A stretch of 55,440 bases of DNA from an uncultured virus (IMG/VR IMGVR_UViG_3300042295_000410) (Duplodnaviria; Heunggongvirae; Uroviricota; Caudoviricetes): the IMG/VR virus record IMGVR_UViG_3300042295_000410. The stretch is one strand, 5' to 3'. How positions within the stretch are numbered: position 1 is the first letter of the stretch; the number at the start of each line of letters is the position of its first letter. Shown in pieces: positions 13,151-55,321 of this stretch. Below the pieces are notes generated by a model. That model saw nothing but the letters and a program-made list of their open reading frames with translations, had not been told where the DNA came from and searched no databases. The position numbers were made by a program, and so were the translations under genes.

Positions 13151-13245
13151 ATAGACTTTCGCAGGGGCAAGTTTGCGTAGCAGATATGCAGTAGGTGAGA
13201 TTCCTGCAGGCTTAGCAGAGGCCAAACACACCCTGGGAAGTCTGT
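13151..13245 (+). ncRNA. unidentified structured RNA upstream of tmRNA
   Basis: 10-bp closing stem ATAGACTTTC/GGAAGTCTGT, inner CAGGG/CCCTG, GTTTG/CAAAC and GTAGG-TGAGATT-CCTGC hairpin; TAAATA just upstream. Confidence 0.5.
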
Positions 13246-13254
13246 TAAAAGTTA

Positions 13255-13569
13255 AGACTGTATGAAGTAGACAGAAAAGGATTCAAGACGCGGGGGCAGT
13301 GCCCGCCAGGTCCACCATAAAACATATTTCCGACAGTAGGCGGAGGTGACAATGTCCATTCGGGTGAGTATGTTTTATAATGGGCCTGACACAGGATCGA
13401 TTGGGTCAAGAGTATTGAAATGGACAGTCCGGCAATGTAGAAGCCGTTAGGATTGGGGTGACCCGGTCGCAGAAGCAAAAAACCTAAATGCAAACGATGC
13501 ATACTTTGGAGAAGACCGCCTAGCAGCGTGATCTCCACGAGGTAGTTATACCTTGTCACCCAAAATAGC
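13255..13569 (+). ncRNA. ssrA: circularly permuted (two-piece) tmRNA; tag ANDAYFGEDRLAA
   Basis: 3' acceptor piece GCGGG-GGCAGTG-CCCGC-CAGGTCC-A-CCA (13290-13317) precedes 5' end GGGCCTG (13382) giving G3:U70; tag frame 13490-13531; outer ends approximate. Confidence 0.9.
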
Positions 13570-35456: not shown

Positions 35457-35993
35457 ATGAGCTTAAAAGATTTAACCAGTGCTAAACATGCAGAGGCTGA
35501 ATCTACTCCGTTTATGAAGGCAGTGTTTGCACAAACCCTGCCTTTTGATTTGTGGGTAGATTGGACATATCAAAAGTGGCTATTCTATGGAGCCATTGAA
35601 GGTGCCGCAGGGGCCAATCGATTGTTAGGAGACTTGCCAGACTTACGCCGTGCATTTTATCTAGCAATGGATTATCAAGAAATGAACGGGGACAATCCCC
35701 GCCATGAGTTCCGTCATATCGTTGTTGACTATTACAATTACATTCTAAGCATTAGTAAAGATCCTAACAAGATTATGGCACACTTGTATACATGGCACAT
35801 GGGTGACATGTTCGGTGGCCAAATGATTAAGAAGATTGTTCCGGGCGCACATCGTAACTTAGAGTTCGAAGATCCCCGAACACTGATGACCAATATTCGT
35901 GCCAAGCTGGACGACAGCATGGGCGATGAAGCCAATGTGGCCTTTGATTGGGCAATACGAATGATGAGGGACTATGACAGTAGTTTGGGATAA
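35457..35993 (+). CDS. hemO: heme oxygenase (HemO-like)
   Basis: LKDLT..KH.EAE, AHLYTWHMGDMFGGQ, EANVAF. Confidence 0.88.
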   Translation: MSLKDLTSAKHAEAESTPFMKAVFAQTLPFDLWVDWTYQKWLFYGAIEGAAGANRLLGDLPDLRRAFYLAMDYQEMNGDNPRHEFRHIVVDYYNYILSISKDPNKIMAHLYTWHMGDMFGGQMIKKIVPGAHRNLEFEDPRTLMTNIRAKLDDSMGDEANVAFDWAIRMMRDYDSSLG

Positions 35994-36645
35994 GGTTAGT
36001 AAACTAGCCGCTGATATTACAGAAAGATTTAATGTTGTCGGGGAACAGATTAATTCCCCGTCTGCACATCAATATGGTTGGCATAATACTCTATGGTCCA
36101 GTAACCAATTCCGCAGAGCACATGTTGAAATTGTAGATTTCCGTGAGACCTACAATATCTACATATTACATGTCACAGTATTTCCGCACTTCAACGATCC
36201 TAGCCCTATCTATGGGTTTGATGCTGTATGCGGCCCAAACAAAATAACAGGTGCGTTTCACGACTTCAGTCACGCTGGTGATCCTAATAGTTTTATGTAT
36301 TTGTGGTTTAAAGCTCAGGTGCATGGACTAGAATGGAACAAGCCTAGACAATTACCCGAGTGGGCACAACAGATCTTCAGTCCTGCTATGGTAGCTGCTG
36401 GTAATCTACAAGACGAAGCTGAAATAGACCAACTATGCAATACAGCATTAACCACATTAGATTTCTATCTAAAGAATGTAGGAATAGAACAACAAAGTGG
36501 TGCTGATTATCACATGGCACAAAATCGTTATTGCCATTATCAGAAACAGAATCCCCATGTGATCAAAAGTATGATTAGTATGGGCATATCTGAACCTACT
36601 ATGAAGAAATTCGTACAGGAAATCTTATTCCCGGAATTTCACTAA
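35974..36645 (+). CDS. pcyX: ferredoxin-dependent bilin reductase (PcyX/PcyA-like)
   Basis: FRRAHVE, ILHVTVFP, PIYGFD, HDFS, LPEWA..IFS, QNRYC..QKQNPH; follows heme oxygenase. Confidence 0.8.
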   Translation: MTVVWDKVSKLAADITERFNVVGEQINSPSAHQYGWHNTLWSSNQFRRAHVEIVDFRETYNIYILHVTVFPHFNDPSPIYGFDAVCGPNKITGAFHDFSHAGDPNSFMYLWFKAQVHGLEWNKPRQLPEWAQQIFSPAMVAAGNLQDEAEIDQLCNTALTTLDFYLKNVGIEQQSGADYHMAQNRYCHYQKQNPHVIKSMISMGISEPTMKKFVQEILFPEFH

Positions 36646-36655
36646 ATACTCTATT

Positions 36656-38038
36656 ATGCGATCACGTGAATTTTTAACCCTATTAGAATCCGAGCAAACT
36701 CTTAATCCTAACAAACTGACAAAAGATATGGTACGGTTTGATAGGCTCATTGCTAATATTACTGCCGGCAACCCTTTATACTTAAAAGACGGTACTCCTG
36801 TTGTTATTAAAAACACAGAAGCAAAGCGATTACAAGATCTTTTTGATCAAGGAAAATTTGCTGGTACTATAACTCTACTAGGTGCAGATCAAAAACCCTA
36901 TCCACTGGGATCATTCTTAAAAACAAAAGAATACGGTGGTCAAAGTGTTCCTCCTAATCAACAAGACACAGATGCAGTTCCTGTTGCTGGCCTTAGACCA
37001 GGACAGGTCTTCCAACACGGTGACCCAAATAAAGATCAAAATCTAACACCCGAACTTGCCTTGGAGTTGGGGGCATTTCTTGCGGGACAATTGGGGCAAA
37101 AGATACAATCAAATAAACATCTTGATAGTCAGGGTGCAGCTGGTGCGGCTGTTAAAGAAATTTCCCGTGCAATTGATGCAGAACAAATTCCGACGGTTCC
37201 AGATCTCAGCAAATCAGAAATTGGCAACATACAAAACTATGGATTTGAATATCTAGGAGTACAAGCCCTAATCAAAGGTGTTGCAAATTTTCCAAATTCT
37301 GAAGCATTTTACGAACACGTGGGCGGCAATCTAGAGGAATTAGTATTATATTTTCCGGCTAGTTCTAGTAATCCTGTAGCAGATAGTTACGCTCTTGTTA
37401 ACAGAAAAACTGAAAATACTATTTTTATCAGCAGTAAGGGCGCTGGAGGTGGCATGCCAAGCAGTGTAACCGCATTAAAGATTCCCAATAACATGAGAAA
37501 AATGATTGGCAAAGATCCTGCAATTACATTTATTGACATGTTGCAACAAAATGCCAAACCTGCATGGATACAACCGTTCTATGCCGCAAATTGGTTAGAA
37601 GAAAACTATCCAGGTTCAATGGGAGAATTAAGTAAATTTTTACCCTTTACTGACGAATTGTTTATATATTTGTCCACTATTCTAAAATCTCGTAACGAAG
37701 GTGTGCCAGAAACACTAGATCAAATTCCAGCAGAATTTCAAGAACTATATAAGTTAGTGGAAACTTCTATAACTGCTAAACACCCTTTATGGTACTACTT
37801 GAGATACTATGTCAAGGATGTAATTCATAGTGCTGTTAAGAAAGGCGTCATTCCTAATTTTTCTAAACGTATGATTGAATTGTTAGGACAGAATTTTGTT
37901 CTATTAAAAACCACTATTAAAGGCAAGCAATTTATAACAGATGTAAAATGGCCTTCAAAAGTAGGTGGTACTATTACATTTGAGCACAAAGATCCTGCTC
38001 CAAAATGGGATAGTGCAATGACCTGGAAACTTAATTAA
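36656..38038 (+). CDS. hypothetical protein, possibly virion-packaged
   Basis: 460 aa; TAAATA late motif; N-terminus MRSREFLTLLE; D..L...ISSKG may be a PD-(D/E)XK-like site. Confidence 0.7.
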   Translation: MRSREFLTLLESEQTLNPNKLTKDMVRFDRLIANITAGNPLYLKDGTPVVIKNTEAKRLQDLFDQGKFAGTITLLGADQKPYPLGSFLKTKEYGGQSVPPNQQDTDAVPVAGLRPGQVFQHGDPNKDQNLTPELALELGAFLAGQLGQKIQSNKHLDSQGAAGAAVKEISRAIDAEQIPTVPDLSKSEIGNIQNYGFEYLGVQALIKGVANFPNSEAFYEHVGGNLEELVLYFPASSSNPVADSYALVNRKTENTIFISSKGAGGGMPSSVTALKIPNNMRKMIGKDPAITFIDMLQQNAKPAWIQPFYAANWLEENYPGSMGELSKFLPFTDELFIYLSTILKSRNEGVPETLDQIPAEFQELYKLVETSITAKHPLWYYLRYYVKDVIHSAVKKGVIPNFSKRMIELLGQNFVLLKTTIKGKQFITDVKWPSKVGGTITFEHKDPAPKWDSAMTWKLN

Positions 38039-38075
38039 TTATTCCTGTCGTTAAGTATATACTAAATACTTAACG

Positions 38076-38444
38076 ATGGAACTGCTCTCAATACTCCTTC
38101 TTTTGCAGATCAAGCATTGTTATGCTGATTTTGTCCTGCAGACTTATCAACAGACCGTTAAAAAAGGTGTGTGGATGGACCCCACGGGAATTAGTCATAC
38201 AACAGATCATATGTATTGTACTTTAATAGCAATGCTTATTTTCAGTTTCTTTGTTCCTGTTGGTGCGTTTGCTATAATATTTGTTACTCTAATTGAAGGT
38301 ATTGTTCACTATCTTGTGGATTACAGCAAGGTAAAGTATGGTAGCAAAGACAACACTAAACCTATCTTCTGGACACAGTTCGGTCTAGACCAGCTAGCAC
38401 ATCAAGTCACATACATATGGATGATATGGTTTTTGTTAGTTTGA
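38076..38444 (+). CDS. DUF3307-like membrane protein
   Basis: KHCYADFVLQ, HYLVDYSK, GLDQLAH. Confidence 0.8.
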   Translation: MELLSILLLLQIKHCYADFVLQTYQQTVKKGVWMDPTGISHTTDHMYCTLIAMLIFSFFVPVGAFAIIFVTLIEGIVHYLVDYSKVKYGSKDNTKPIFWTQFGLDQLAHQVTYIWMIWFLLV

Positions 38445-38523
38445 ATTGTTAAACCCAACAAAACTGCGTATATAATCGCTCTCCAAATGCCCTTAAATAT
38501 ATGTAAGGACATCGGAGCGAGCA

Positions 38524-39012
38524 ATGAAGAAAATTAAAATAGCGTTAGGAGTATGTCTTACACTAGGACTTGCTACTGCAAATGCAGAATTGGTACACCA
38601 ATTCAACAATCCTACCTTTAGCGGTCAAGGGTGGGCCAGCCAAGTGCTGACTATGGAGCAAATGCGACAGAGCGCACAGGCCAGTAAAGCGTCAAGAGAG
38701 GCTGGAGAAAGAGCCGCAGCAGAAGCGGCCGCAGCAAATACACCGTTGGCTAGATTTATGAATCTGTTTACAGGACAAGTATACAGTCAATTGGCTACAC
38801 AGTTAACTAACAATCTGTTTAAAGAATGTACTGGATCAAATTGTTCTAAAGGTGAGTTTATGGTAACTGAAACACAAAAAATTGTCTGGACTAAATTAGA
38901 GAATAATGTTACGCTGAATGTTTTTGATGGAAAAATCGTTGACAAGAAATTTGTTCCAAATGCAAGTCCGACACAGACTATCACTGTGCCAGTATCTAGT
39001 TTTAATTTTTAA
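38524..39012 (+). CDS. csgF: curli assembly protein CsgF-like
   Basis: Signal peptide then ELVHQFNNPTFSG, matching the CsgF N-terminal F.NP.F.G motif. Confidence 0.7.
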   Translation: MKKIKIALGVCLTLGLATANAELVHQFNNPTFSGQGWASQVLTMEQMRQSAQASKASREAGERAAAEAAAANTPLARFMNLFTGQVYSQLATQLTNNLFKECTGSNCSKGEFMVTETQKIVWTKLENNVTLNVFDGKIVDKKFVPNASPTQTITVPVSSFNF

Positions 39013-39022
39013 GGAGCGATGG

Positions 39023-39988
39023 ATGAGAATATTTAAATTATCAACTATTGTTCTTGCAACAGCAGTATTGATGGGGTGTGCATCCGTAGTTAGACCTTTT
39101 GGCAAAGTAGGTATTGGAGACATACCAAAAGTAACAGAGACTATACAAAAAGAAATTGATACACTACCTGCGCCAGACGGTCCTAAGATTGCAGTGGCAG
39201 TTTACGGATTTAAAGACATGACTGGACAGAGAAAAAACAGCACCACGCTGAGTTTATTCTCAACCGCAGTAACACAAGGTGCCGAAAGTTATCTAATCAA
39301 GAGTTTACAAGAAGCAGGTAATCGTCAATGGTTTACTGTAGTAGAACGTGTTAATCTTGACAACCTATTAAAAGAACGTCAGATGATTAAACAGACTCGT
39401 GAGATATACGACGGAGCTAATGCTAAAATGCTACCACCTTTGGCATTAGCTGGAGTTATTCTAGAAGGTGGTATCATTGACTACAACAGTAATGTACTAA
39501 CAGGCGGAACTGGATTTGCAGTTTTAGGAATTGGCCCATACACACAGTATATGCAAGATCAAGTGGTAATCAGTATGAGATTAGTCAGTGTACAAACCGG
39601 AGAAATATTAACCAGTGTTACTATTGAGAAAAATCTTTTGAGTACCAAAGACGGTACAACTGCTGTTAAATTTTACAATCAAGGAACGCGATCATTTGAG
39701 TTTGACAGTAGTCAAACTTTTAATGAACCAGGCAACTATGCTCTAAGGTCGGCAATTGAGCAAGGGATTATTGAGCTAGTTAAAAGTGGAAAAAATCTAG
39801 GTCTATGGAAATTCAAGGAGAAACCTAATGAGTTGGTTCAAAAGGAAGCCCCACGTGAAGGAGCCGCCCAAACACCTTCCGCATCGTCAGTACAGCCCAG
39901 CAACGGAAAAAATGCTAGAGGAAGTAAAGAAGAAGGTAGTTGGAATGCTACCGACGGATCAGGCAACAGGATCCAAACAACAAAATAA
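39023..39988 (+). CDS. csgG: curli secretion channel CsgG-like lipoprotein
   Basis: Lipobox VLMGC; AVY.FKD.TGQRK, FSTAVTQG, WF.VVER..LDNLLKERQ, EGGIIDY. Confidence 0.9.
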   Translation: MRIFKLSTIVLATAVLMGCASVVRPFGKVGIGDIPKVTETIQKEIDTLPAPDGPKIAVAVYGFKDMTGQRKNSTTLSLFSTAVTQGAESYLIKSLQEAGNRQWFTVVERVNLDNLLKERQMIKQTREIYDGANAKMLPPLALAGVILEGGIIDYNSNVLTGGTGFAVLGIGPYTQYMQDQVVISMRLVSVQTGEILTSVTIEKNLLSTKDGTTAVKFYNQGTRSFEFDSSQTFNEPGNYALRSAIEQGIIELVKSGKNLGLWKFKEKPNELVQKEAPREGAAQTPSASSVQPSNGKNARGSKEEGSWNATDGSGNRIQTTK

Positions 39989-40023
39989 AGCGAGACCGGT
40001 CAACAAAACCAGGAGCAAATAAA

Positions 40024-40830
40024 ATGAAAAAAACACTATTAGCAATTATATTAGCCGCAACACTGCCGGCTTTTGCACAAACAGCACCTACTGCACCAAC
40101 GCAGGCCAGTGCGCCCACGATTACTACAGCCAGTACCACACGCTTTGCAGCAGGCGTTACGGCTGCATTAGGTGCAAGTACAACTAACATTATCTATCTA
40201 GAGCAGACTGGATCTGCACCTACAGTCAGTATCAATCAAGACGGTAACAGTAACCGTGCTGGTGCTACTGCCGCAGGTGCTATTAACAGTATGATATTAG
40301 ATGGTAATAATCAAGTTGTTACTATTGACCAAACAGGTAACAATAACATTATCAACACCATGAAAATCACCGGAAGTGATGCTAATGTTTACTTGCTACA
40401 GTCAGGTAACAGCAACACAGCCAATGTAAGTTGTGGATTGACAACAACCTGTGCAGGACAAGCTGGCCTTGATGAAAATGCATTGCTTGATTTAAGATTC
40501 ACTGGTAACAGCAACACTGCAAATTATACCGGCAATGGTACAGCACTTCAAGCAGCAGCGTATGTTACAGGCAACGGTAATACACTTAACTTAGAACAAT
40601 CTAGCTCTACCGGTGCTGGTCAACAAATGTTGATTAACTTGTCAAGTAGTGACAACAACACTGTTAACGTTCTGCAATCTAGTGCAAGCATGAGCAGTTT
40701 AGTATTGGCACAAAACGGTGCAGGTGGAACAACTTTTAACATCAGTCAAACTGGGACCCATGCTAACGTTGCTAATATTTCAGCCACAGCAGCAGGTGGC
40801 ACTTTTAACATCATTCAGAAGAGCCGTTAA
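40024..40830 (+). CDS. secreted curlin-repeat protein (CsgA/CsgB-like)
   Basis: Signal peptide; repeated I.Q.G..N units. Confidence 0.7.
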   Translation: MKKTLLAIILAATLPAFAQTAPTAPTQASAPTITTASTTRFAAGVTAALGASTTNIIYLEQTGSAPTVSINQDGNSNRAGATAAGAINSMILDGNNQVVTIDQTGNNNIINTMKITGSDANVYLLQSGNSNTANVSCGLTTTCAGQAGLDENALLDLRFTGNSNTANYTGNGTALQAAAYVTGNGNTLNLEQSSSTGAGQQMLINLSSSDNNTVNVLQSSASMSSLVLAQNGAGGTTFNISQTGTHANVANISATAAGGTFNIIQKSR

Positions 40831-40842
40831 TCGGAGGATGCT

Positions 40843-41979
40843 GTGAAGTTATGGGCCATTGCACTATGGTTGGTTTGCACCACTGCGATTGCTGATATAG
40901 GATCAGTCGTTGATCTTTCAGGCACCGCAGTTATTAAACGTGGCAAAACAATCGTCTCCGTAGCTAAAGGCACTGTAGTTGAAACCAATGATAAAGTTGA
41001 AACTAAAAACGGTGTTGTCAACATCAAGTTTAAAGACAACACCACTGTTAAAATAACTGAAAACAGTGCATTAGTAATAGATGATTTTGTATACGATCCT
41101 AAAAATGCTGCGGGCGGCAAACTTAGCCTTAAGGCTGCTGCTGGTACTGTACGTTATGTATCTGGTAATATCGCACACAACAACCCCAACAGTGTAAAAA
41201 TTAATACACCCACTGCGTCTATTGCTGTTCGCGGCACTGATTTTGTAATGTCAGTAGATGAAACAGGTAAAAGTCTTGTTATGTTAATGCCTGCCTGTGA
41301 AGTAAATCAAAGCATTAACTTAAAAGGAATGGTTTGCGGTAGTGGTCGAATAGATGTTGACAGCGGATCAAAAATAATTACATTAGACAAACCTTATCAA
41401 GCAACTATTGTTGAAACAGCGGCAACCCCTCCTACTATTCCTGTAGTAGTTAATCTAGCTAATACTGCAATTGGAAATAATTTATTGATTCGTTTGCCTA
41501 ATACTATGTCAGGTGTTGGTATACAACAAGCTGCTCGTGCTGCTGCTGAAAAAACTGGCGATGCCAAACGTGACGATGACAAGAAAGACAACAAAGATCC
41601 TAGTTCGGCAGAAGCCAAAGCGACTAACGATCAGCAGAAAAATAATCAAGAACGAACTTCTAGGGAGCGAGATGCAGAAGACCGTGCCTTATCCTTATTA
41701 ACAGAACTAAAAGATAAAGGTGTTGCAGTAACAGACAAAGCATTTGAAAACGAGCATGTGGTTCGATACTACAAGAACGATAATCCAAACTTAAATCAGT
41801 TAGGTATAGGCTATATGAGTTTGAGTGCTAACGGAAATAACTTTACTGCTATAAGTCTAACTAATGACAACAAGGTGTTGGTAGTAGTTACACAAGATAG
41901 AATTACCGATGCGTTCAATTTTGCTGGATCACTCAACAAGCCGCAGGGCAGTATCATTATTAATCAGAGCTACAGATGA
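40843..41979 (+). CDS. FecR-domain periplasmic protein
   Basis: Signal peptide; ENSALVIDDFVYDP, GTVRYVSG, TPTASIAVRGTDF. Confidence 0.82.
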   Translation: MKLWAIALWLVCTTAIADIGSVVDLSGTAVIKRGKTIVSVAKGTVVETNDKVETKNGVVNIKFKDNTTVKITENSALVIDDFVYDPKNAAGGKLSLKAAAGTVRYVSGNIAHNNPNSVKINTPTASIAVRGTDFVMSVDETGKSLVMLMPACEVNQSINLKGMVCGSGRIDVDSGSKIITLDKPYQATIVETAATPPTIPVVVNLANTAIGNNLLIRLPNTMSGVGIQQAARAAAEKTGDAKRDDDKKDNKDPSSAEAKATNDQQKNNQERTSRERDAEDRALSLLTELKDKGVAVTDKAFENEHVVRYYKNDNPNLNQLGIGYMSLSANGNNFTAISLTNDNKVLVVVTQDRITDAFNFAGSLNKPQGSIIINQSYR

Positions 41980-43961
41980 TAAGACAAATATTTTTAATGA
42001 TGTTGCTAGTCTGCACAAATGCCTTTGGTGCTATCACCGACGGCAAGTTTGGCATCAATCAAATATTTGACGTACAATACAGCTGGAGTGGTACCACATT
42101 ATATGCCAGCAACTTTATTGCACCTTACAACAAGAACTTTCAAACAGTGACGGTTAGCGCAGGACAATACTTTCAGTTCTTTAATAGCACAACTAATCCA
42201 GGGAAGCACGGATTGAAATTGATGAACAGCAACGGCACACAACACAGTATTGTCCATGATCACGGCGATATTACTGCTCTAGGTAATGGTGCTATCTTCT
42301 ATATTGGATCTGGGTTCTTTGGTAATGTGATTACAACGGCACAAGGTTATAACTACGGTGCTAGTGCTACATTTACTAATATGGATACTAGTGTTACCAG
42401 CAGTGACCTAAATAACTATACATTTGCTAGCACAACACCGTTATCAGCAGGACAAACAGCACAGCCGGCACCTGCAACACCGAACTGGCAAATGATTAGA
42501 ACCAACAGCACGCCAGTTGTAATCAGCAACATCTATCCTACCAGCTATAATAGTCCCAGCAACGAAGGTGCTGCTAATGCCTTTGACGGCAACGTTGGCA
42601 CTAAGTACTTGAACTTTGATAAACAGAACGCAGGTGTCACTGTTAAACTAAGTCAAGGTCGTGTAGTTCAAAAGTTTACCATTACTACTGCTAATGATTC
42701 AGTTGAACGAGATCCAGCAAGTTATAAACTATACGGATCTAATGATGGTGTTAACTGGACTCTGATTAAAGAAGGTCCGTTGACTTTATCTGATTCTAGA
42801 TTTAGTGTCAGTGGTGAAATAACAGTGGACAACACTACCGCCTATGTCTATTACTTTATAAAGTTTCCAAGTATTAAAAATAACAGCGGTAATAGTGTGC
42901 AGATTGCTGAAGTTACCTACTACTACGATTTAAATGATGGAGTAACCAGCAGTGATACAGGTTCAGGTGGCACACCTAGCAATCCAGGTACAGCAGGTGC
43001 AGCAGTATCCAACGAAGGACCAACGGTAGTTGGTACATCAACTAGCAACAGTATTAGCACAAGTTCATCTAGTTCAAGCACTGGATCTATAACAATTACT
43101 CGCCCAACTACCACAGGAAACTTTACTGACGGGTTCGTAGGAACAACTACAGTGACTACAACAACTACAACACCGGTGACTACTACTACATGGAGTGACG
43201 GATCAACTACAACTAGCAACGGTACACCAAGTAGCACTACTAACACTACCTATACCATCACACCCACTTACGGAACTGCTCCTACATATTCTCGAACCGC
43301 TCCTAACATTAGTGGCAACAGCATTTATATCAAACAGGTTGTGGCTGGCACAAACAATTCCGTTACATTAGAGCAAGATGGAAATAACAATGCCATTACA
43401 GGAACCGACAGCGGGTGGGCAACGTTAAATGGCAACGGCAACATACTGAGTATAAAACAGTTCGGACAAGGTAATATTGCAGGTGTTAAAATGAATGCCT
43501 GGGGCAACAATATTGACATTAAGCAACAGACTGCTAACGGTGGTGATGTCAACAACAATATATTCAATTTTGAAAGTGCTGGTAATGGTAATGCAGTCAC
43601 TGCTCAACAACAGAGCAATAACAATACCGCTAGTGTAAAAACTACATGGGATATTAATACTGTAAACATTACACAAAAGACTGGAACAGGTAATGCAAGT
43701 TATGCTACATTAACAGGCAATTGGAACACTGTTAACAACACACAAGCCGGCAGCAACAATCTAAGCATTGTAAATGTCAGCGGAGACAACAACTCAGCAA
43801 CAGTTAATCAAACTGGCACAGGACACAGTACTTTATTAAACTTAATTGGTAATAAAAACACTGTTAGCGTCACACAAACAGGTGTAGGAGATGCCTACAC
43901 ACTACAACAGACCTGTACAAATCCAGCAGGCTGCTCGGTATCAGTTATTAGAAACAAGTAA
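41976..43961 (+). CDS. secreted protein with discoidin (F5/8 type C)-like domain, Thr/Ser linker and C-terminal curlin repeats
   Basis: NAFDG...TKY, RDP..YKLYGSNDG.NWT; Q.G..N repeats. Confidence 0.72.
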   Translation: MIRQIFLMMLLVCTNAFGAITDGKFGINQIFDVQYSWSGTTLYASNFIAPYNKNFQTVTVSAGQYFQFFNSTTNPGKHGLKLMNSNGTQHSIVHDHGDITALGNGAIFYIGSGFFGNVITTAQGYNYGASATFTNMDTSVTSSDLNNYTFASTTPLSAGQTAQPAPATPNWQMIRTNSTPVVISNIYPTSYNSPSNEGAANAFDGNVGTKYLNFDKQNAGVTVKLSQGRVVQKFTITTANDSVERDPASYKLYGSNDGVNWTLIKEGPLTLSDSRFSVSGEITVDNTTAYVYYFIKFPSIKNNSGNSVQIAEVTYYYDLNDGVTSSDTGSGGTPSNPGTAGAAVSNEGPTVVGTSTSNSISTSSSSSSTGSITITRPTTTGNFTDGFVGTTTVTTTTTTPVTTTTWSDGSTTTSNGTPSSTTNTTYTITPTYGTAPTYSRTAPNISGNSIYIKQVVAGTNNSVTLEQDGNNNAITGTDSGWATLNGNGNILSIKQFGQGNIAGVKMNAWGNNIDIKQQTANGGDVNNNIFNFESAGNGNAVTAQQQSNNNTASVKTTWDINTVNITQKTGTGNASYATLTGNWNTVNNTQAGSNNLSIVNVSGDNNSATVNQTGTGHSTLLNLIGNKNTVSVTQTGVGDAYTLQQTCTNPAGCSVSVIRNK

Positions 43962-43980
43962 ATTTTGCTATAAATAACTG

Positions 43981-44313
43981 ATGCGATTCGACGACCTTAT
44001 TAAAAAACCTGCCAAACCGCAGAAGCCATTGACCTATACAGAAAGTTTACAGGCTAAACTTGATGCAGAAATGGCGGATAAACCTGCTCCAAAATTTACA
44101 GCATTAGAATATGCTATGATGGAAGGTGGTCACAGTTTAGAAGAAAACTTTGCAGATGGTAAGAACCCGCAAGACAAAGGCGACAGCAAGCGTCACGGTG
44201 TTCCTACTAAATCGTCAGTAAGTACACTGCGTAAGGTTGCCAAGCAAGGTGGTCGAAAAGGTCAGTTAGCACATTGGATGGCCAATATGAAAGCAGGGAA
44301 GGCTAAGAAATGA
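43981..44313 (+). CDS. small basic phage protein
   Basis: TATAAATA 5 nt upstream; LEE then basic C-terminus. Confidence 0.7.
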   Translation: MRFDDLIKKPAKPQKPLTYTESLQAKLDAEMADKPAPKFTALEYAMMEGGHSLEENFADGKNPQDKGDSKRHGVPTKSSVSTLRKVAKQGGRKGQLAHWMANMKAGKAKK

Positions 44314-44597
44314 AGATTCAAGAACTTTTAGAAGACTGGAACAAAGTCAACAAACAAGACAAGACAGATGGCCTTAGTCAAAAGGCTGTTAATGCTTATC
44401 GTAGAGAGAATCCAGGCAGCAAACTTAAGACTGCTGTAACTACTAAGCCTAGTAAATTAAAAGCAGGCAGCAAGGATGCTAAACGCCGCAAGAGTTTTTG
44501 TGCTCGCATGTCGGGTAACAAAGGCCCTATGAAGGACGAGAAAGGTCGTCCAACTCCTAAAGCCAAAGCACTGTCTCGCTGGAACTGCGAGGAATAA
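44310..44597 (+). CDS. small basic phage protein (DUF6321-like)
   Basis: YRRENPGSKLKTAVT, RRKSFCARM motifs common in T4-like phages. Confidence 0.7.
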   Translation: MKIQELLEDWNKVNKQDKTDGLSQKAVNAYRRENPGSKLKTAVTTKPSKLKAGSKDAKRRKSFCARMSGNKGPMKDEKGRPTPKAKALSRWNCEE

Positions 44598-44600
44598 AAT

Positions 44601-46664
44601 ATGAAAAAAATATTACTAAGCCCGTGGTTGGCATTAATTACATTGGTATTGATAGCAGGTGTCAGATTTGCAGATCCTGCATTTGTTGAATCAGTTAGAC
44701 TGCGATACTTCGATCAACTTATCATTAGCCAACCTAAACAAGACATTCCTGTACATACTGTTAATATAGATGAAGCTGCATTAGACAAGTATGGACAATT
44801 CCCTTTTCCTCGAGGACTATATGCTGACATTATTAAAGACCTATATGATAGAAACGCTGGACTTGTTGTGCTCAATATCCTCATGCCTGAATCAGATCGA
44901 TTCAATCAAGATACTCAACTGGCCAAAGCCTTAGAAAAATATTCAGTGGTGCTGCCGCAGGTTGCCAGCACCACAGGCAAGAATAAGACGTTCGGAAGTG
45001 CTGTACAAATTGTAGGCGTTGACCCAGAAGGTAGTCTAGTAGAATATCCAGGTATTATCGCCAACGTTCCTATGCTAGAAGAACGTGCGGCTGGTGTAGG
45101 TGTTGTAAATACTTTTCCTGAAATAGACGGTGTTGTTCGTCGTATGCCGTTGCTAATACTAAGCGGAGAAACTGTGCATCCTGCAATCGGTTTAGAAACA
45201 CTTAGGACTGCGGCAGGAGATACAAAAATACAAGTTAAGATTACAGACATGGGGGTTGAAGCAGTGCGTATTCCTAAACTGAATCGCATCAACGTAGATC
45301 CATTGAGTCGTGTATGGATTGATTGGAGCCAGCAACCCAAGCAACACAGTCTTGCCAAATTGCCCAAAGACTTCAACGGTGAAATCGTTATAGTGGGATT
45401 AAGTGCGGCAGGATTAGTTCAACCAGTAGCTACTGCTCGCGGCGAAATTTGGCCACAGGATATGCAGGCAAGTTTATTAGGTACAATGCTTAACGGCAAA
45501 ACTATTCAGCGTCCAGGCTACGCAGATGACTTAGAAACAGTAGCTATTCTAATTGCAGGTATATTGCTATTATTTTTAACGAGGTGGACCTATGCGGGAT
45601 TGGCAGCGACAGTTGTTATTATTGGCGGTGGCATTGCTGGCAGCATCTATGCTTACAGCAGTCTTTTATTCTTATTCGATGCTACTGCCTTTGCAGTTGG
45701 CACAACTTTGGTCGCTCTGCATGCCTATGGCATCAAGTTTGTAAGCGAGTTCCTACAGAAGAGTCAGATTAAGAAACAGTTTGGCAGTTACGTAAATCCT
45801 GTTATTGTTGAACGCTTACAAAAAGATCCTAGCTTTATCAAACTGGGTGGTGAGAAGAAAGATTTAACTGTTATCATGAGCGACATGCGTAACTTTACGG
45901 GACTAGGTGAGACATACGGTGATGACGTTGTGGCATTTACACAGACTATGAACCGTTACATGACTGCCATTGCGGAGCCTATACTGCGTAACAATGGGTG
46001 TTTGATCAAGTTCATAGGTGATGCGTCATTACACGTACACGGTGCTCCTATTCAAGAAGAACAAGATCCGGATCATGTGTTAGCAGGAGTGCGTACAGGT
46101 CTTGAAATGTTGCACGCTGTTGAGCTGTTTAATATTGAACTTACCAAAGAAGGTAAGCCCTTAGTAGGTTGCGGATTGGGTATCAACACTGGCCCTACAC
46201 TAATTGGTAACATTGGTAGTAAGGATCGATTTGGTTATGACGTACTAGGCGACTCAGTAAGTTTAACTGCTCGACTAGAAGGACAGACCAAGAACTATGG
46301 TGTGTTGATCATCATTAGCGAGTTTACACAGGCTCGAGTAGGCGACAATTACTTTACAATTCCATTAGACTGTATTGCTGTTAAAGGTAAGACTATTGGC
46401 GTTAACATATTCACAGTGTTTTACAATCCAGATGCCACTGTGGCAGCAGATTGGATCATGGCTCGAGAGCATCATGAACTAATGTTAGAATATTATCGTC
46501 AACAACAGTGGGACAAGGCCATTACACTGTGCCAAGAACTTACAGGTGAGTTTGACGGCAAGATGGATCACTATTACGAATTATGGATTGAGCGTATTGC
46601 TGAGATGCGTACAAGAGATCTAGCCGCAGATTGGGACGGTACCTACAGAGCTACATCAAAGTGA
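44601..46664 (+). CDS. CHASE2-domain adenylate/guanylate cyclase
   Basis: IDEAALDKYGQFPFPR, DGVVRR, TM helices, SDMRNFT, KFIGDA, GINTG, GD.V..ARLEG, VKGK. Confidence 0.92.
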   Translation: MKKILLSPWLALITLVLIAGVRFADPAFVESVRLRYFDQLIISQPKQDIPVHTVNIDEAALDKYGQFPFPRGLYADIIKDLYDRNAGLVVLNILMPESDRFNQDTQLAKALEKYSVVLPQVASTTGKNKTFGSAVQIVGVDPEGSLVEYPGIIANVPMLEERAAGVGVVNTFPEIDGVVRRMPLLILSGETVHPAIGLETLRTAAGDTKIQVKITDMGVEAVRIPKLNRINVDPLSRVWIDWSQQPKQHSLAKLPKDFNGEIVIVGLSAAGLVQPVATARGEIWPQDMQASLLGTMLNGKTIQRPGYADDLETVAILIAGILLLFLTRWTYAGLAATVVIIGGGIAGSIYAYSSLLFLFDATAFAVGTTLVALHAYGIKFVSEFLQKSQIKKQFGSYVNPVIVERLQKDPSFIKLGGEKKDLTVIMSDMRNFTGLGETYGDDVVAFTQTMNRYMTAIAEPILRNNGCLIKFIGDASLHVHGAPIQEEQDPDHVLAGVRTGLEMLHAVELFNIELTKEGKPLVGCGLGINTGPTLIGNIGSKDRFGYDVLGDSVSLTARLEGQTKNYGVLIIISEFTQARVGDNYFTIPLDCIAVKGKTIGVNIFTVFYNPDATVAADWIMAREHHELMLEYYRQQQWDKAITLCQELTGEFDGKMDHYYELWIERIAEMRTRDLAADWDGTYRATSK

Positions 46665-52696: not shown

Positions 52697-52725
52697 TTGA
52701 CAACAATGCTAAATAACTGTATAAT
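52697..52725 (+). promoter_or_regulatory. sigma70 promoter P2 of tRNA region
   Basis: TTGACA-17-TATAAT. Confidence 0.88.
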
Positions 52726-52784
52726 TAGAACATACACTGCAATAAGGTAGTGTATGTAACAAAAGGTTTTAAAGAGAAAACAAA

Positions 52785-52931
52785 ATGCAATCGTCCAATA
52801 GACATCAACAATTTAATACGATGCCCAAACAGGTAGGTGTAATAGCCTGCGGTTGGTTATCGATTAATGCGGGAAGTCTATCATATGATCGTACACCAGA
52901 GATTTCTAGGGTCCGGAGGACTGTCGTGTAA
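52785..52931 (+). CDS. putative attenuator leader peptide (48 aa, all 20 amino acids)
   Basis: MQSSNRHQQFNTMPKQVGVIACGWLSINAGSLSYDRTPEISRVRRTVV; last codons complementary to the terminator 5' arm. Confidence 0.6.
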   Translation: MQSSNRHQQFNTMPKQVGVIACGWLSINAGSLSYDRTPEISRVRRTVV

Positions 52932-52956
52932 CACACAAGTTAACACAACAAACTTC

Positions 52957-52995
52957 AAGGACCCTAGGATTAAAAACCCTGGGGTTTTTTGTTTT
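52957..52995 (+). terminator. intrinsic terminator with competing antiterminator
   Basis: ACCCTAGG/CCTGGGGT + TTTTTTGTTTT; alternative pairing 52905-52918 with 52953-52969. Confidence 0.8.
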
Positions 52996-53007
52996 CCGCA
53001 AGGAAGA

Positions 53008-53157: not shown

Positions 53158-53270
53158 ATCGCAAAGTGTAATATAGTACGGGAACGAGGCCCGGGGAACG
53201 CACTTAAAACATGTTCTAAACGGGCGGACTAGTGGATGGCTTATCCTTATGTGGATAAAAAAATACTAGT

Positions 53271-53341
53271 TATTAAAGCAAATTGGTACCTGCTGACTCT
53301 GAATCAGAACAGGACGCATAGCGTAACAGTTTGTTTTAATA
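53271..53341 (+). ncRNA. three-way-junction RNA with Gln(CUG)-like anticodon loop
   Basis: 15-bp stem 53271-85/53327-41; CTGA-CTCTGAA-TCAG hairpin. Confidence 0.5.
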
Positions 53342-53371
53342 AGCACTTTCGAAAGAGAGTGTTAACAATTT

Positions 53372-53460
53372 GGAGCTTGTCCCCCATTGCCAGCTGTAAC
53401 CTGGTAGCCATTATTAAGTGGGGTGGCTGGCAAGAGGTTCAATTCCTTCAGGCTCCACCA
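53372..53460 (+). tRNA. tRNA-Tyr(GTA)-like, D-arm absent, 8/4 fold
   Basis: GGAGCTTG/CAGGCTCC-A-CCA; GCCAG-CT GTA AC-CTGGT; long variable arm; TTCAATT T-loop. Confidence 0.7.
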
Positions 53461-53552: not shown

Positions 53553-53644
53553 GGAAAGTAATGCAGCGGGGTTGGTCCTGCGACCAGCCTTGAAAACTGG
53601 GTTCTCAGAAATGGGATGGGGTTCGACTCCTCTGCTTTCCGCCA
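53553..53644 (+). tRNA. tRNA-Ser(TGA), 8/4 fold
   Basis: 8-bp acceptor GGAAAGTA/TGCTTTCC, 4-bp T stem, CT TGA AA, G73, CCA. Confidence 0.85.
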
Positions 53645-53650
53645 AGACAA

Positions 53651-53679
53651 TTGACAAATTCTACATAAGATTGTATAAT
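53651..53679 (+). promoter_or_regulatory. internal sigma70 promoter in tRNA array
   Basis: TTGACA-17-TATAAT. Confidence 0.88.
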
Positions 53680-53687
53680 TACATTAT

Positions 53688-53803
53688 GCGACCGTAAGTG
53701 GAATATGGCAGACCTCCCGTTATGCTCATAGCATAGGTCAGGGGAAGGGGCACATAACATAGTTACCGTGCTCTTGTAGGTTCGAGACCTACCGGTCGTA
53801 CCA
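53688..53803 (+). tRNA. oversized Leu-scaffold tRNA-like RNA (116 nt), anticodon uncertain (CAT loop on extended arm)
   Basis: GCGACCG/CGGTCGT-A-CCA; Leu-type D arm and long variable arm; normal T arm. Confidence 0.6.
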
Positions 53804-53807
53804 GTTT

Positions 53808-53869
53808 TAGGATCAGTTCAGCAAACTTAAAAACTTTTTTATTATTCAAAAAAACCAAAGTTGATCCTG
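53808..53869 (+). ncRNA. CAGCAA-box RNA copy 4
   Basis: AGGATCA/TGATCCT, GTT, CAGCAA. Confidence 0.7.
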
Positions 53870-53957: not shown

Positions 53958-54014
53958 TAGGATGCGTCCAGCAAATCAAAAAATTCAACTTTTAATTGAA
54001 AAATAAGCATCCTG
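53958..54014 (+). ncRNA. CAGCAA-box RNA copy 5 (carries Lys(UUU)-like anticodon loop)
   Basis: AGGATGC/GCATCCT, GTC, CAGCAA; TTCAA-CTTTTAA-TTGAA. Confidence 0.72.
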
Positions 54015-54274: not shown

Positions 54275-54676
54275 ATGAGTATATCAAACGAAAAAGGTGA
54301 AATAGGAGAAGCAGCATTTGTGCTCGTTTCTGCCAAAAGAGGATATTGGACTGGCAAAATGCCACAAGGTTGTCCTTATGATTATGTGTTAGATAGACAC
54401 GACGGTAAACTTTTACGAATTCAAGTTAAGTTTAGATCGTTAGAAAGTAACGGAATAGTTACAATTAAACTATCTCAAAACACATTTACAAATAGAGTTT
54501 CTTACAATGAAAGTAACATCGATTATATTGCAGTCTATGTAAATGAATTAGATAAAGTATATCTCGTTCCTATTGCAGAAATATGCGATGTAAAAGAAGT
54601 TAAACTGCGATGTGTAGAATCAACAAAAAGAAAAGATAAAAACTCTCGTATAATAACAGAATACGCAGAGTGGTAA
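54275..54676 (+). mobile_element. free-standing PD-(D/E)XK homing endonuclease (I-Ssp6803I-like) in tRNA array
   Basis: KGEIGE, PYDYVLD, RIQVK, Y....IDYIAVY; TATAAATA and AGGAG upstream. Confidence 0.8.
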
Positions 54677-55098: not shown

Positions 55099-55174
55099 CC
55101 TTGAGTTAAGCGGGGCCGTATACACCCTTGCCAATAGTTAGTAATGTGTACTGCGACATACACCTCGAGGGCCA
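55099..55174 (+). ncRNA. 76-nt tRNA-like RNA without canonical D, anticodon or T loops
   Basis: CCTTGAG/CTCGAGG-G-CCA acceptor stem; GTGTA-CTGCGACA-TACAC in T-arm position. Confidence 0.6.
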
Positions 55175-55181
55175 AGTTTAT

Positions 55182-55258: not shown

Positions 55259-55321
55259 TAGGATACTTACAGCAAACCAAAATATTTCACTTTTTGGCTG
55301 TGAAAAGCAAACAGTATCCTG
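55259..55321 (+). ncRNA. CAGCAA-box RNA copy 6
   Basis: AGGATAC/GTATCCT, TTA, CAGCAA; TTTCAC/GTGAAA hairpin. Confidence 0.7.

Follow-up and report, generated by a model that had tools for sequence, protein, structure and literature searches.

An 89-nt gene in the tRNA cluster of an uncultured freshwater virus encodes a tRNA-Tyr(GUA) that has no D hairpin and is instead folded through a pseudoknot shared with a large family of phage and bacterial genes. Comparison of the sequences of this family establishes four nested helices, a crossing helix, and the order of their strands. The simplest reading of this arrangement is that the 5' D strand and the D loop have been relocated into the variable loop, which we regard as likely, and the knotted RNA likely works like a tRNA-Tyr. 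The fold is real, conserved and apparently undescribed in print; an unnamed entry in one of the large phage-RNA catalogues is possible. A full-text literature search, judged by titles and abstract openings and with subscription papers and preprint supplements outside its scope, returned no paper describing it.

Results

The tRNA-Tyr element and its recognition

The window analyzed here, a stretch of 55,440 nt, is the final 55 kb of a 117-kb virus record with an estimated completeness of 33%, and its end falls within the tRNA cluster. An earlier note, made from the letters of this DNA, had described the element as a D-armless tRNA-Tyr. Re-reading of the window bore out the coordinates and sequence of the element, its 8-bp acceptor stem, its 4-bp T stem with an outer G.U pair, its GTA anticodon and encoded A73-CCA, and the mere 9 nt (53380-88) that occupy the place of a D arm (Table 1). 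Contigs of 4/4 other DNA assemblies, none of them flagged as a possible source, cover the element with 0 differences, on which ground an assembly error was rejected. Among IMG/VR contigs, two are identical over the element (L002, L003) and a third carries a single difference, in the T loop.

Standard annotation overlooks the gene. Neither default ARAGORN nor Rfam RF00005 called it, its score lying below the RF00005 threshold; at a lowered threshold ARAGORN calls it tRNA-Tyr. When presented with bare genes, ARAGORN called 1 of the 179 detector matches described below. The tmRNA score of the element is 9.2 bits against a threshold of 47. The single-sequence fold is weak (z -1.85) and its lowest-energy structure is a different hairpin, and for these reasons the case for the fold is made by comparison. 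The lower predicted energy of this rival hairpin counts against the fold; all 8 of its pairs are possible in 10/111 Tyr members and 0/25 Arg members, and it was therefore rejected as a family feature.

Table 1. Features of the knotted tRNA-Tyr gene and of its upstream region (window positions).
Feature	Position	Strand	Details
Putative sigma-70-type promoter	52697..52725	+	12/12 consensus match only
Leader ORF, 48 codons	52785..52931	+	all 20 amino acids, 37 distinct codons
Predicted antiterminator versus terminator-like hairpin	52904..52996	+	52904-14 with 52959-69; hairpin 52957-89 and T run
Pseudoknotted, D-hairpin-less tRNA-Tyr(GUA), whole gene	53372..53460	+	89 nt, CCA encoded
Acceptor stem, 5' strand	53372..53379	+	8 bp with 53449-53456; G1:C72
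Linker, 2 nt	53380..53381	+	UC here; UU in 92/111 Tyr members
Long-range helix, 5' strand	53382..53387	+	pairs with 53418-53423; directly continues into anticodon stem; probable counterpart of the 3' D strand of a normal tRNA
Anticodon arm	53388..53406	+	6-bp stem including pair 26:44; 7-nt loop CUGUAAC; anticodon GUA 53396-53398
Variable stem, 5' strand GCC	53407..53409	+	3 bp with 53429-53431; crosses long-range helix
A/U-rich connector	53410..53417	+	7-8 nt in 98/111 Tyr members; 93% A+U
Long-range helix, 3' strand GTGGGG	53418..53423	+	pairs with CCCCAT 53382-87; probable equivalent of the 5' D strand, positions 10-13
D-loop-like segment UGGCU	53424..53428	+	GG at 53425-26, probably G18 G19; C53427 probably position 20
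Variable stem, 3' strand GGC	53429..53431	+	pairs with GCC 53407-09
T arm	53434..53448	+	4-bp stem (53434-37 with 53445-48), outer pair weak in family; loop UUCAAUU
Acceptor 3' strand, discriminator A73, CCA	53449..53460	+	A73 in 109/109 Tyr members

Conservation and covariation of the pseudoknot

An unbiased test of the knot comes from a scan that fixed the anticodon loop, the T loop and CCA alone, and no base of the knot core. It yielded 117 distinct matches, comprising 71 without tRNA stems, 1 with room for a D arm and 45 that are D-armless. Among these 45 (one of which, L675, is a misparsed ordinary tRNA that was retained in the alignment), 43 form 6/6 pairs of the long-range helix and 2 form 5/6, compared with 2.3 expected to form 6/6 after shuffling, and in 43/45 a 7-bp acceptor strand is followed by 10 nt. 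When the sequences were aligned with MAFFT without guidance, 97.9% of cells paired under the model, as against 37-57% with slid partners, and two-sided changes occur in 21/25 model pairs. RNAalifold, also unguided, recovers the long-range helix as a continuation of the anticodon stem. The acceptor stem has 98.6% of its cells paired in the alignment, with two-sided changes in 7/8 pairs, and the anticodon stem 97.5%, with two-sided changes in 6/6. The GCC/GGC variable stem is 99.3% paired, its middle pair being changed on both sides in 16/46 rows. This 3-bp stem is crossed by the long-range helix, which makes the RNA a pseudoknot.

On a tree of 111 sequences, pre-selected for at least 5 of the 6 long-range pairs and built without the helix columns, five of these pairs have 5, 8, 28, 25 and 4 coupled changes, and the sixth does not change anywhere; slid controls on the same tree have 0, 8, 14 and 2. 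The variable stem has 16 coupled changes on the tree. The 8th acceptor pair is formed in 111/111 Tyr members and the 4th T pair in 71/111, the remaining 40 having U.U. The inner two T-arm pairs and the T loop were prerequisites of the search patterns. Like a cloverleaf tRNA, the RNA has U33 and a purine at 37 within a 7-nt anticodon loop, and a T loop of the form UUCRANY. A GG follows the long-range strand in 108/111 Tyr and 25/25 Arg members, part of this set having been found by patterns that require GG.

These results refine the pairing that the earlier note had proposed between CCCCATT and AGTGGGG. Six base pairs of it (CCCCAT 53382-87 with GTGGGG 53418-23) stand and the seventh falls: T53388 pairs with A53406, extending the anticodon stem, in 42/46 rows, compared with 29/46 for the proposed seventh loop pair, and the 7-bp version of the knot is not conserved. 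A 5-bp AGCCA/TGGCT hairpin, the most evident form that the long variable arm named there could take in this sequence, is likewise not conserved (67% of cells paired). The note had named covariation of the pseudoknot in homologues as a check, and the pseudoknot does covary, with many compensatory changes. It had also named, as a refutation, relatives that carry a normal D arm without compensatory changes; the relatives form a family lacking the D hairpin in which the helix covaries, and this condition therefore does not refute the reading. Its view that the gene is neither decayed nor the product of a recent deletion is thus sustained by the covarying pseudoknot and by helices kept across the family.

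Size, anticodons and hosts of the family

Viral, genome and metagenome collections were pattern-scanned, annotated phages were searched with BLAST, and the matches were read with a structure-based detector. The family consists of at least 176 distinct sequences in phages and bacterial tRNA arrays, namely 109 Tyr-GUA, 66 Arg and 1-2 Ile-UAU members. The strict detector itself gave at least 179 distinct matches (109 GUA, 63 UCU, 2 CCU, 1 UCG, 2 UAU and 2 other); the 2 matches with other anticodons lack GG and are probably due to chance, and single matches with further anticodons are weak. Two UAU genes (2) satisfy the strict detector, and up to 6 UAU candidates were seen under looser criteria. 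Applied to 1.03 Mb of reversed loci, the strict detector produced 0 matches. A D hairpin was found in none of the at least 176 distinct members. Within each of the two large groups, Tyr and Arg, core identity falls as low as 42%, with all helices retained by compensatory change.

In cultured phages, the Tyr members occur in phages of Pseudomonas and the Arg members in phages of Acinetobacter, Aeromonas, Vibrio, Nitrincola, Salicola and Escherichia; further members are found in uncultured phages, and in bacterial tRNA arrays of Pyrinomonadaceae, Planctomycetota and Hydrogenophaga bins. Members lie within tRNA clusters and arrays. Those in Pyrinomonadaceae and related bins are on L478, L482, L501, L512, L515 and L582, and those in Planctomycetota bins on L488, L555, L566 and L574, the last a 3.09-Mb contig; two Planctomycetota members do not encode CCA. 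At least 80% of one Arg member is matched by 328 phage records, many of them near-identical Vibrio phages, and one Arg query had no match in plasmids. In none of 8 GenBank records examined is the knotted gene annotated as a tRNA. The 'pseudo' tRNAs of KVP40 were considered as members and rejected, as their structure differs. Paired knotted Arg genes (CCU and UCU, or UCU and UCG), adjacent or close to each other, are present in Aeromonas phage AhSzw-1 (L595:1398-1576), L823 and L855, which suggests duplication and anticodon change inside the Arg family.

Probable relocation of the D strand, and the identity bases

The 3' D strand of a normal tRNA leads directly into the anticodon stem, and the loop that carries G18 G19 comes after the 5' D strand. 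Here it is the strand following the acceptor stem that enters the anticodon stem, and its partner, located in the variable loop, is succeeded by U/C/A-G-G. If the variable loop indeed contains the 5' D strand and D loop, position 20 is predicted to be the base after GG. Published passages on tRNA identity give A20 as the main determinant for E. coli ArgRS, and G1:C72, A73, G34 and U35 as the bacterial Tyr set (Giege and Eriani 2023, PMC9976931). Among the matches listed, the base after GG is A in 64/66 Arg members versus 4/106 GG-bearing Tyr members, a count that does not represent 66 independent events because the Arg members may share one origin. The bases flanking the GG-A motif are variable in the Arg set, the two Arg exceptions share one contig and have an A one or two bases later, and the scans that yielded Arg members demanded GG.

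Tyr members have G1:C72 in 108/109 cases and A73 in every case, while the remainder of the acceptor stem varies freely, and the 89-nt gene itself carries the full Tyr set. Arg members vary at both 1:72 and 73, with U or C at 73 in 28/66, outside the A/G73 rule. Shared ancestry inflates all of these identity-base counts. The conserved GG and the A20 pattern would fit a contact between G18 G19 and the T loop, and an L shape is likely kept. The term 'D-armless' used in the earlier note thus holds for the secondary structure and is likely wrong in three dimensions, where an equivalent of the D stem and a D-loop-like GG would be present in a new order.

A likely control region upstream

The promoter match at 52697 likely drives the unit that holds the tRNA gene. 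In distinct full-length leaders, all 20 amino acids are represented in 8/10 and 19 in the other 2, compared with 1/516 control windows, and the leader is likely the sensor of a ribosome-mediated attenuator. The competition between antiterminator and terminator was derived from folding, and a 7-nt complement is present in 9/9 relatives examined. We propose that 52697-52996 is likely an attenuator that senses when any tRNA runs short. Behind this predicted starvation-sensing element the knotted gene is the first tRNA gene, a position that fits a back-up role but also a decoy. In the four RNA runs examined, of six listed, contigs of relatives were recovered mostly over the leader, their best-covered part; these runs have little or no depth over the tRNA element, with no spanning piece among those listed. 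A multi-stem element with a strong predicted fold (z -3.6) lies just upstream of the gene at 53266-53343, and a similar sequence precedes the knotted tRNA of relatives.

Coexistence with canonical tRNAs

The Arg and Tyr members differ in the company they keep. In 5/5 cultured phages, the knotted gene is the sole tRNA-like UCU/CCU match; a canonical-looking UCU gene occurs in 2/22 further records and in 0/8 of those at least 90% complete, counts taken from member-bearing records only and including one searched record whose membership is unconfirmed. An ARAGORN-confirmed canonical tRNA-Tyr is present in 14/49 member-bearing records, most of which are fragments, with one more candidate, and in 2/8 near-complete ones. 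Strict exclusion of canonical tRNA-Tyr in phages is therefore rejected. In the nearest relative for which a longer record exists, 34 tRNAs are called within 10 kb, among them a normal tRNA-Tyr about 2.5 kb downstream of the knotted gene and after other promoter matches. Because the nearest relatives also have a canonical tRNA-Tyr, the reading of Tyr codons in them does not depend on the knotted gene alone. In bacterial bins with a member, a canonical-looking copy was also found in 7/10, and the idea that the knotted tRNA is the cell's only copy was rejected. A TyrRS gene was found in none of 5 related records, 3 of them near-complete, and thus the host enzyme would be used.

Other elements of the window

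Several other unusual elements accompany the gene. An (8/4) tRNA-Ser(UGA)-like gene of the type described by Mukai, at 53553-53644, is missed by default ARAGORN and has a weak tRNA-Sec score (33.9 bits). It is followed at 53687-53803 by a tRNA-like RNA of ~117 nt with an acceptor stem, a T arm, CCA and an enlarged middle, which has its own 12/12 promoter match at 53651 and a related piece in an RNA-run contig. Three elements between tRNA genes (53809-53869, 53959-54014 and 55259-55321) are each closed by a stem and share a CAGCAA motif and a middle part rich in A and U; their Rfam matches are weak and likely chance. A 76-nt element at 55099-55175 has a tRNA-like acceptor stem and CCA, with no recognizable T loop or anticodon arm. 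The segment 54203-54241 resembles a tRNA 5' half and is followed by a PD-(D/E)XK endonuclease gene (54275-54676, PF11645); the related contig L001 lacks this insert, which may represent a homing element that broke up a tRNA. Farther away, a permuted tmRNA gene (13239-13531; RF04321, 101.9 bits) hints at a proteobacterial host, and the interval 35457-46664 contains genes for heme oxygenase, ferredoxin-dependent bilin reductase, CsgF, CsgG, curlin repeats and a CHASE2 cyclase.

Discussion

Proposed role and alternative explanations

We think it fairly probable that the gene specifies a tRNA-Tyr of rewired core that is charged and takes part in translation, serving as a back-up behind a likely starvation-sensing attenuator. 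The 6-bp long-range helix and trailing GG likely recreate a D stem with its loop; the helix would stack on the anticodon stem, and the GG would pair with the T loop, giving the elbow, so that the L shape would be retained. To judge from position and sequence, the stalling of ribosomes in the all-amino-acid leader would prevent terminator formation and permit transcription from 52697, the RNA would likely be charged by host TyrRS, and the back-up tRNA would likely read UAU and UAC codons upon stalled translation. Retention of the 12-bp acceptor branch, the T loop and CCA supports a role in translation. Bacterial tRNA-Tyr has a longer variable arm, and the variable stem of just 3 bp counts against a working tRNA-Tyr. 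Mukai (PMC5389517) reports that 8/4 tRNAs translate in E. coli, and also that conserved irregular tRNAs exist that are charged yet non-translating.

The latter RNAs lend some weight to a different explanation, that the product is a folded mimic, synthetase-bound or even charged but non-decoding, which sequesters a defence nuclease that cuts tRNA, or some other host protein that binds tRNA. The coexistence of a canonical tRNA-Tyr in the nearest relatives and in 14/49 records, and the other odd tRNA-like RNAs of the same cluster, would also suit such a decoy. A decoy, however, has no need for A20 in Arg members only, nor for G1:C72 and A73 in Tyr members only; Arg members mostly replace the canonical UCU gene, and the gene is kept by small phages with 1-2 other tRNA matches. 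We consider the mimic unlikely overall, and a pure decoy less likely than a working tRNA because the synthetase identity bases follow the anticodon. Charging with a different amino acid, such as serine in the manner of the 8/4 allo-tRNAs, or delivery outside the ribosome, appears less probable again. The 8/4 branch is that of the allo-tRNAs, many of which carry serine regardless of their anticodon (PMC5389517), and 100 nt beyond the knotted gene there is an (8/4) tRNA-Ser-like gene; yet Tyr members invariably have A73 rather than G73, the variable stem has only 3 bp, and the family has few anticodons, as against 35 in the allo-tRNAs, with identity bases that match them.

Permuted tRNA genes occur in algae and archaea, and the segments of the knotted gene can be read as those of a Sec-like D arm in changed order, as expected of a precursor from which cutting and re-ligation would yield an ordinary cloverleaf. 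This is very improbable: both ends are normal and CCA is encoded, the swap of two inner segments needs three cuts, and the covarying 3-bp variable stem exists solely in the genomic order. Least credible is a decayed tRNA-Tyr or an assembly error, to which the missing ARAGORN and Rfam calls and the poor single-sequence z-score might have pointed; it is refuted by covariation, and the identical sequence in the four other assemblies, the helices kept by compensatory change down to 42% identity and the lack of detector calls on the reversed loci all speak against it.

Nuclease resistance may be the reason that the fold is kept. The earlier note had linked tRNA-Tyr to retron Ec78, which we take to be retron-Eco7. 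In the passages of Azam 2024 (PMC11555353), T5-like phages escape retron-Eco7 via strong expression of functional tRNA-Tyr, and the anticodon loop of the knotted Tyr members is the ordinary CUGUAA(A/C). Arg and Ile members also belong to the family.

Implications

Taking these observations together, we lean modestly toward a new wiring class of tRNA. In such RNAs the D arm would be divided, with its loop and 5' strand passing through the variable loop as a pseudoknot; they would be accepted by ordinary host synthetases, by EF-Tu and by the ribosome, ArgRS would read the 'A20' downstream of the anticodon, hundreds of phages, many of them cultured, would carry working but missed Tyr, Arg and Ile tRNAs, and the core would escape D-arm-recognizing enzymes. 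The known departures from the cloverleaf that we have read about alter arm lengths or drop arms, whereas here the order of the strands changes and the shape is likely kept. The family provides a natural test of what synthetases, EF-Tu, RNase P and the ribosome recognize, shape or connectivity, the relocated A20 being a sharp prediction. Phages have more tRNA genes than are currently counted, a normal and a knotted tRNA-Tyr from one phage form matched pairs for tests against tRNA-cutting defences, and the knotted fold is a new scaffold for tRNA engineering.

Comparison with known systems

The knotted RNA is not an RF00005 tRNA, an allo-tRNA or a mitochondrial D-armless tRNA, because a defining feature of each fails in it. 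With the canonical class II tRNA-Tyr(GUA) of RF00005 it shares the 12-bp acceptor and T branch, the T loop, the 7-nt anticodon loop, G1:C72, A73, CCA and a GCC-type start of the variable stem; it differs in having no D hairpin, in the long-range helix that crosses the variable stem, and in an 8/4 rather than a 7/5 branch. The (8/4) allo-tRNAs and the phage (8/4) tRNA-Ser/His (PMC5389517) likewise have the 8/4 branch, a longer anticodon stem and a long D-type helix followed by a short YGG, and occur in phage clusters and irregular tRNA arrays. Unlike the knotted RNA, the allo-tRNAs have a true D stem-loop, a long variable arm, mostly G73 or U73, and serine identity. Set against the definition of an allo-tRNA, the knotted RNA has the 8-bp acceptor and 4-bp T stems but lacks the long D stem with a tetraloop, the long variable arm and G73/U73. 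The terms 'pseudoknot' and 'Tyr' are absent from the text of the Mukai supplement, its figures aside.

A resemblance to tRNA-Sec is seen in the 6-bp D-type helix with adjacent GG, the 6-bp anticodon stem and the 8-bp acceptor stem, whereas tRNA-Sec has a nested D hairpin, a 13-bp bacterial branch, a UCA anticodon and a long variable arm; the passages of Krahn 2020 (PMC7609411) from which this description is taken use neither 'pseudoknot' nor 'phage'. The phage tRNA-Tyr that counters retron-Eco7 PtuAB shares the phage-borne Tyr anticodon, a strong promoter and a tRNA-rich region, and the available passages ascribe its rescue to strong functional expression and describe no altered topology (PMC11555353). 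The tRNA-like domains of tmRNA and Y RNA, elbow mimics that lack a conserved anticodon loop, form another class, from which the knotted RNA is set apart by its conserved anticodon arm with a covarying stem. Finally, the D-armless mitochondrial tRNA-Ser(GCU), described by Kuhle 2022 (PMC9427863), also lacks a D hairpin between the acceptor and anticodon stems, has lost the tertiary core and the L fold, and requires a specialized synthetase. In contrast, the knotted gene lies in a virus record, with no phage TyrRS found in 5 related records, and keeps a replacement helix, the GG and the canonical identity bases.
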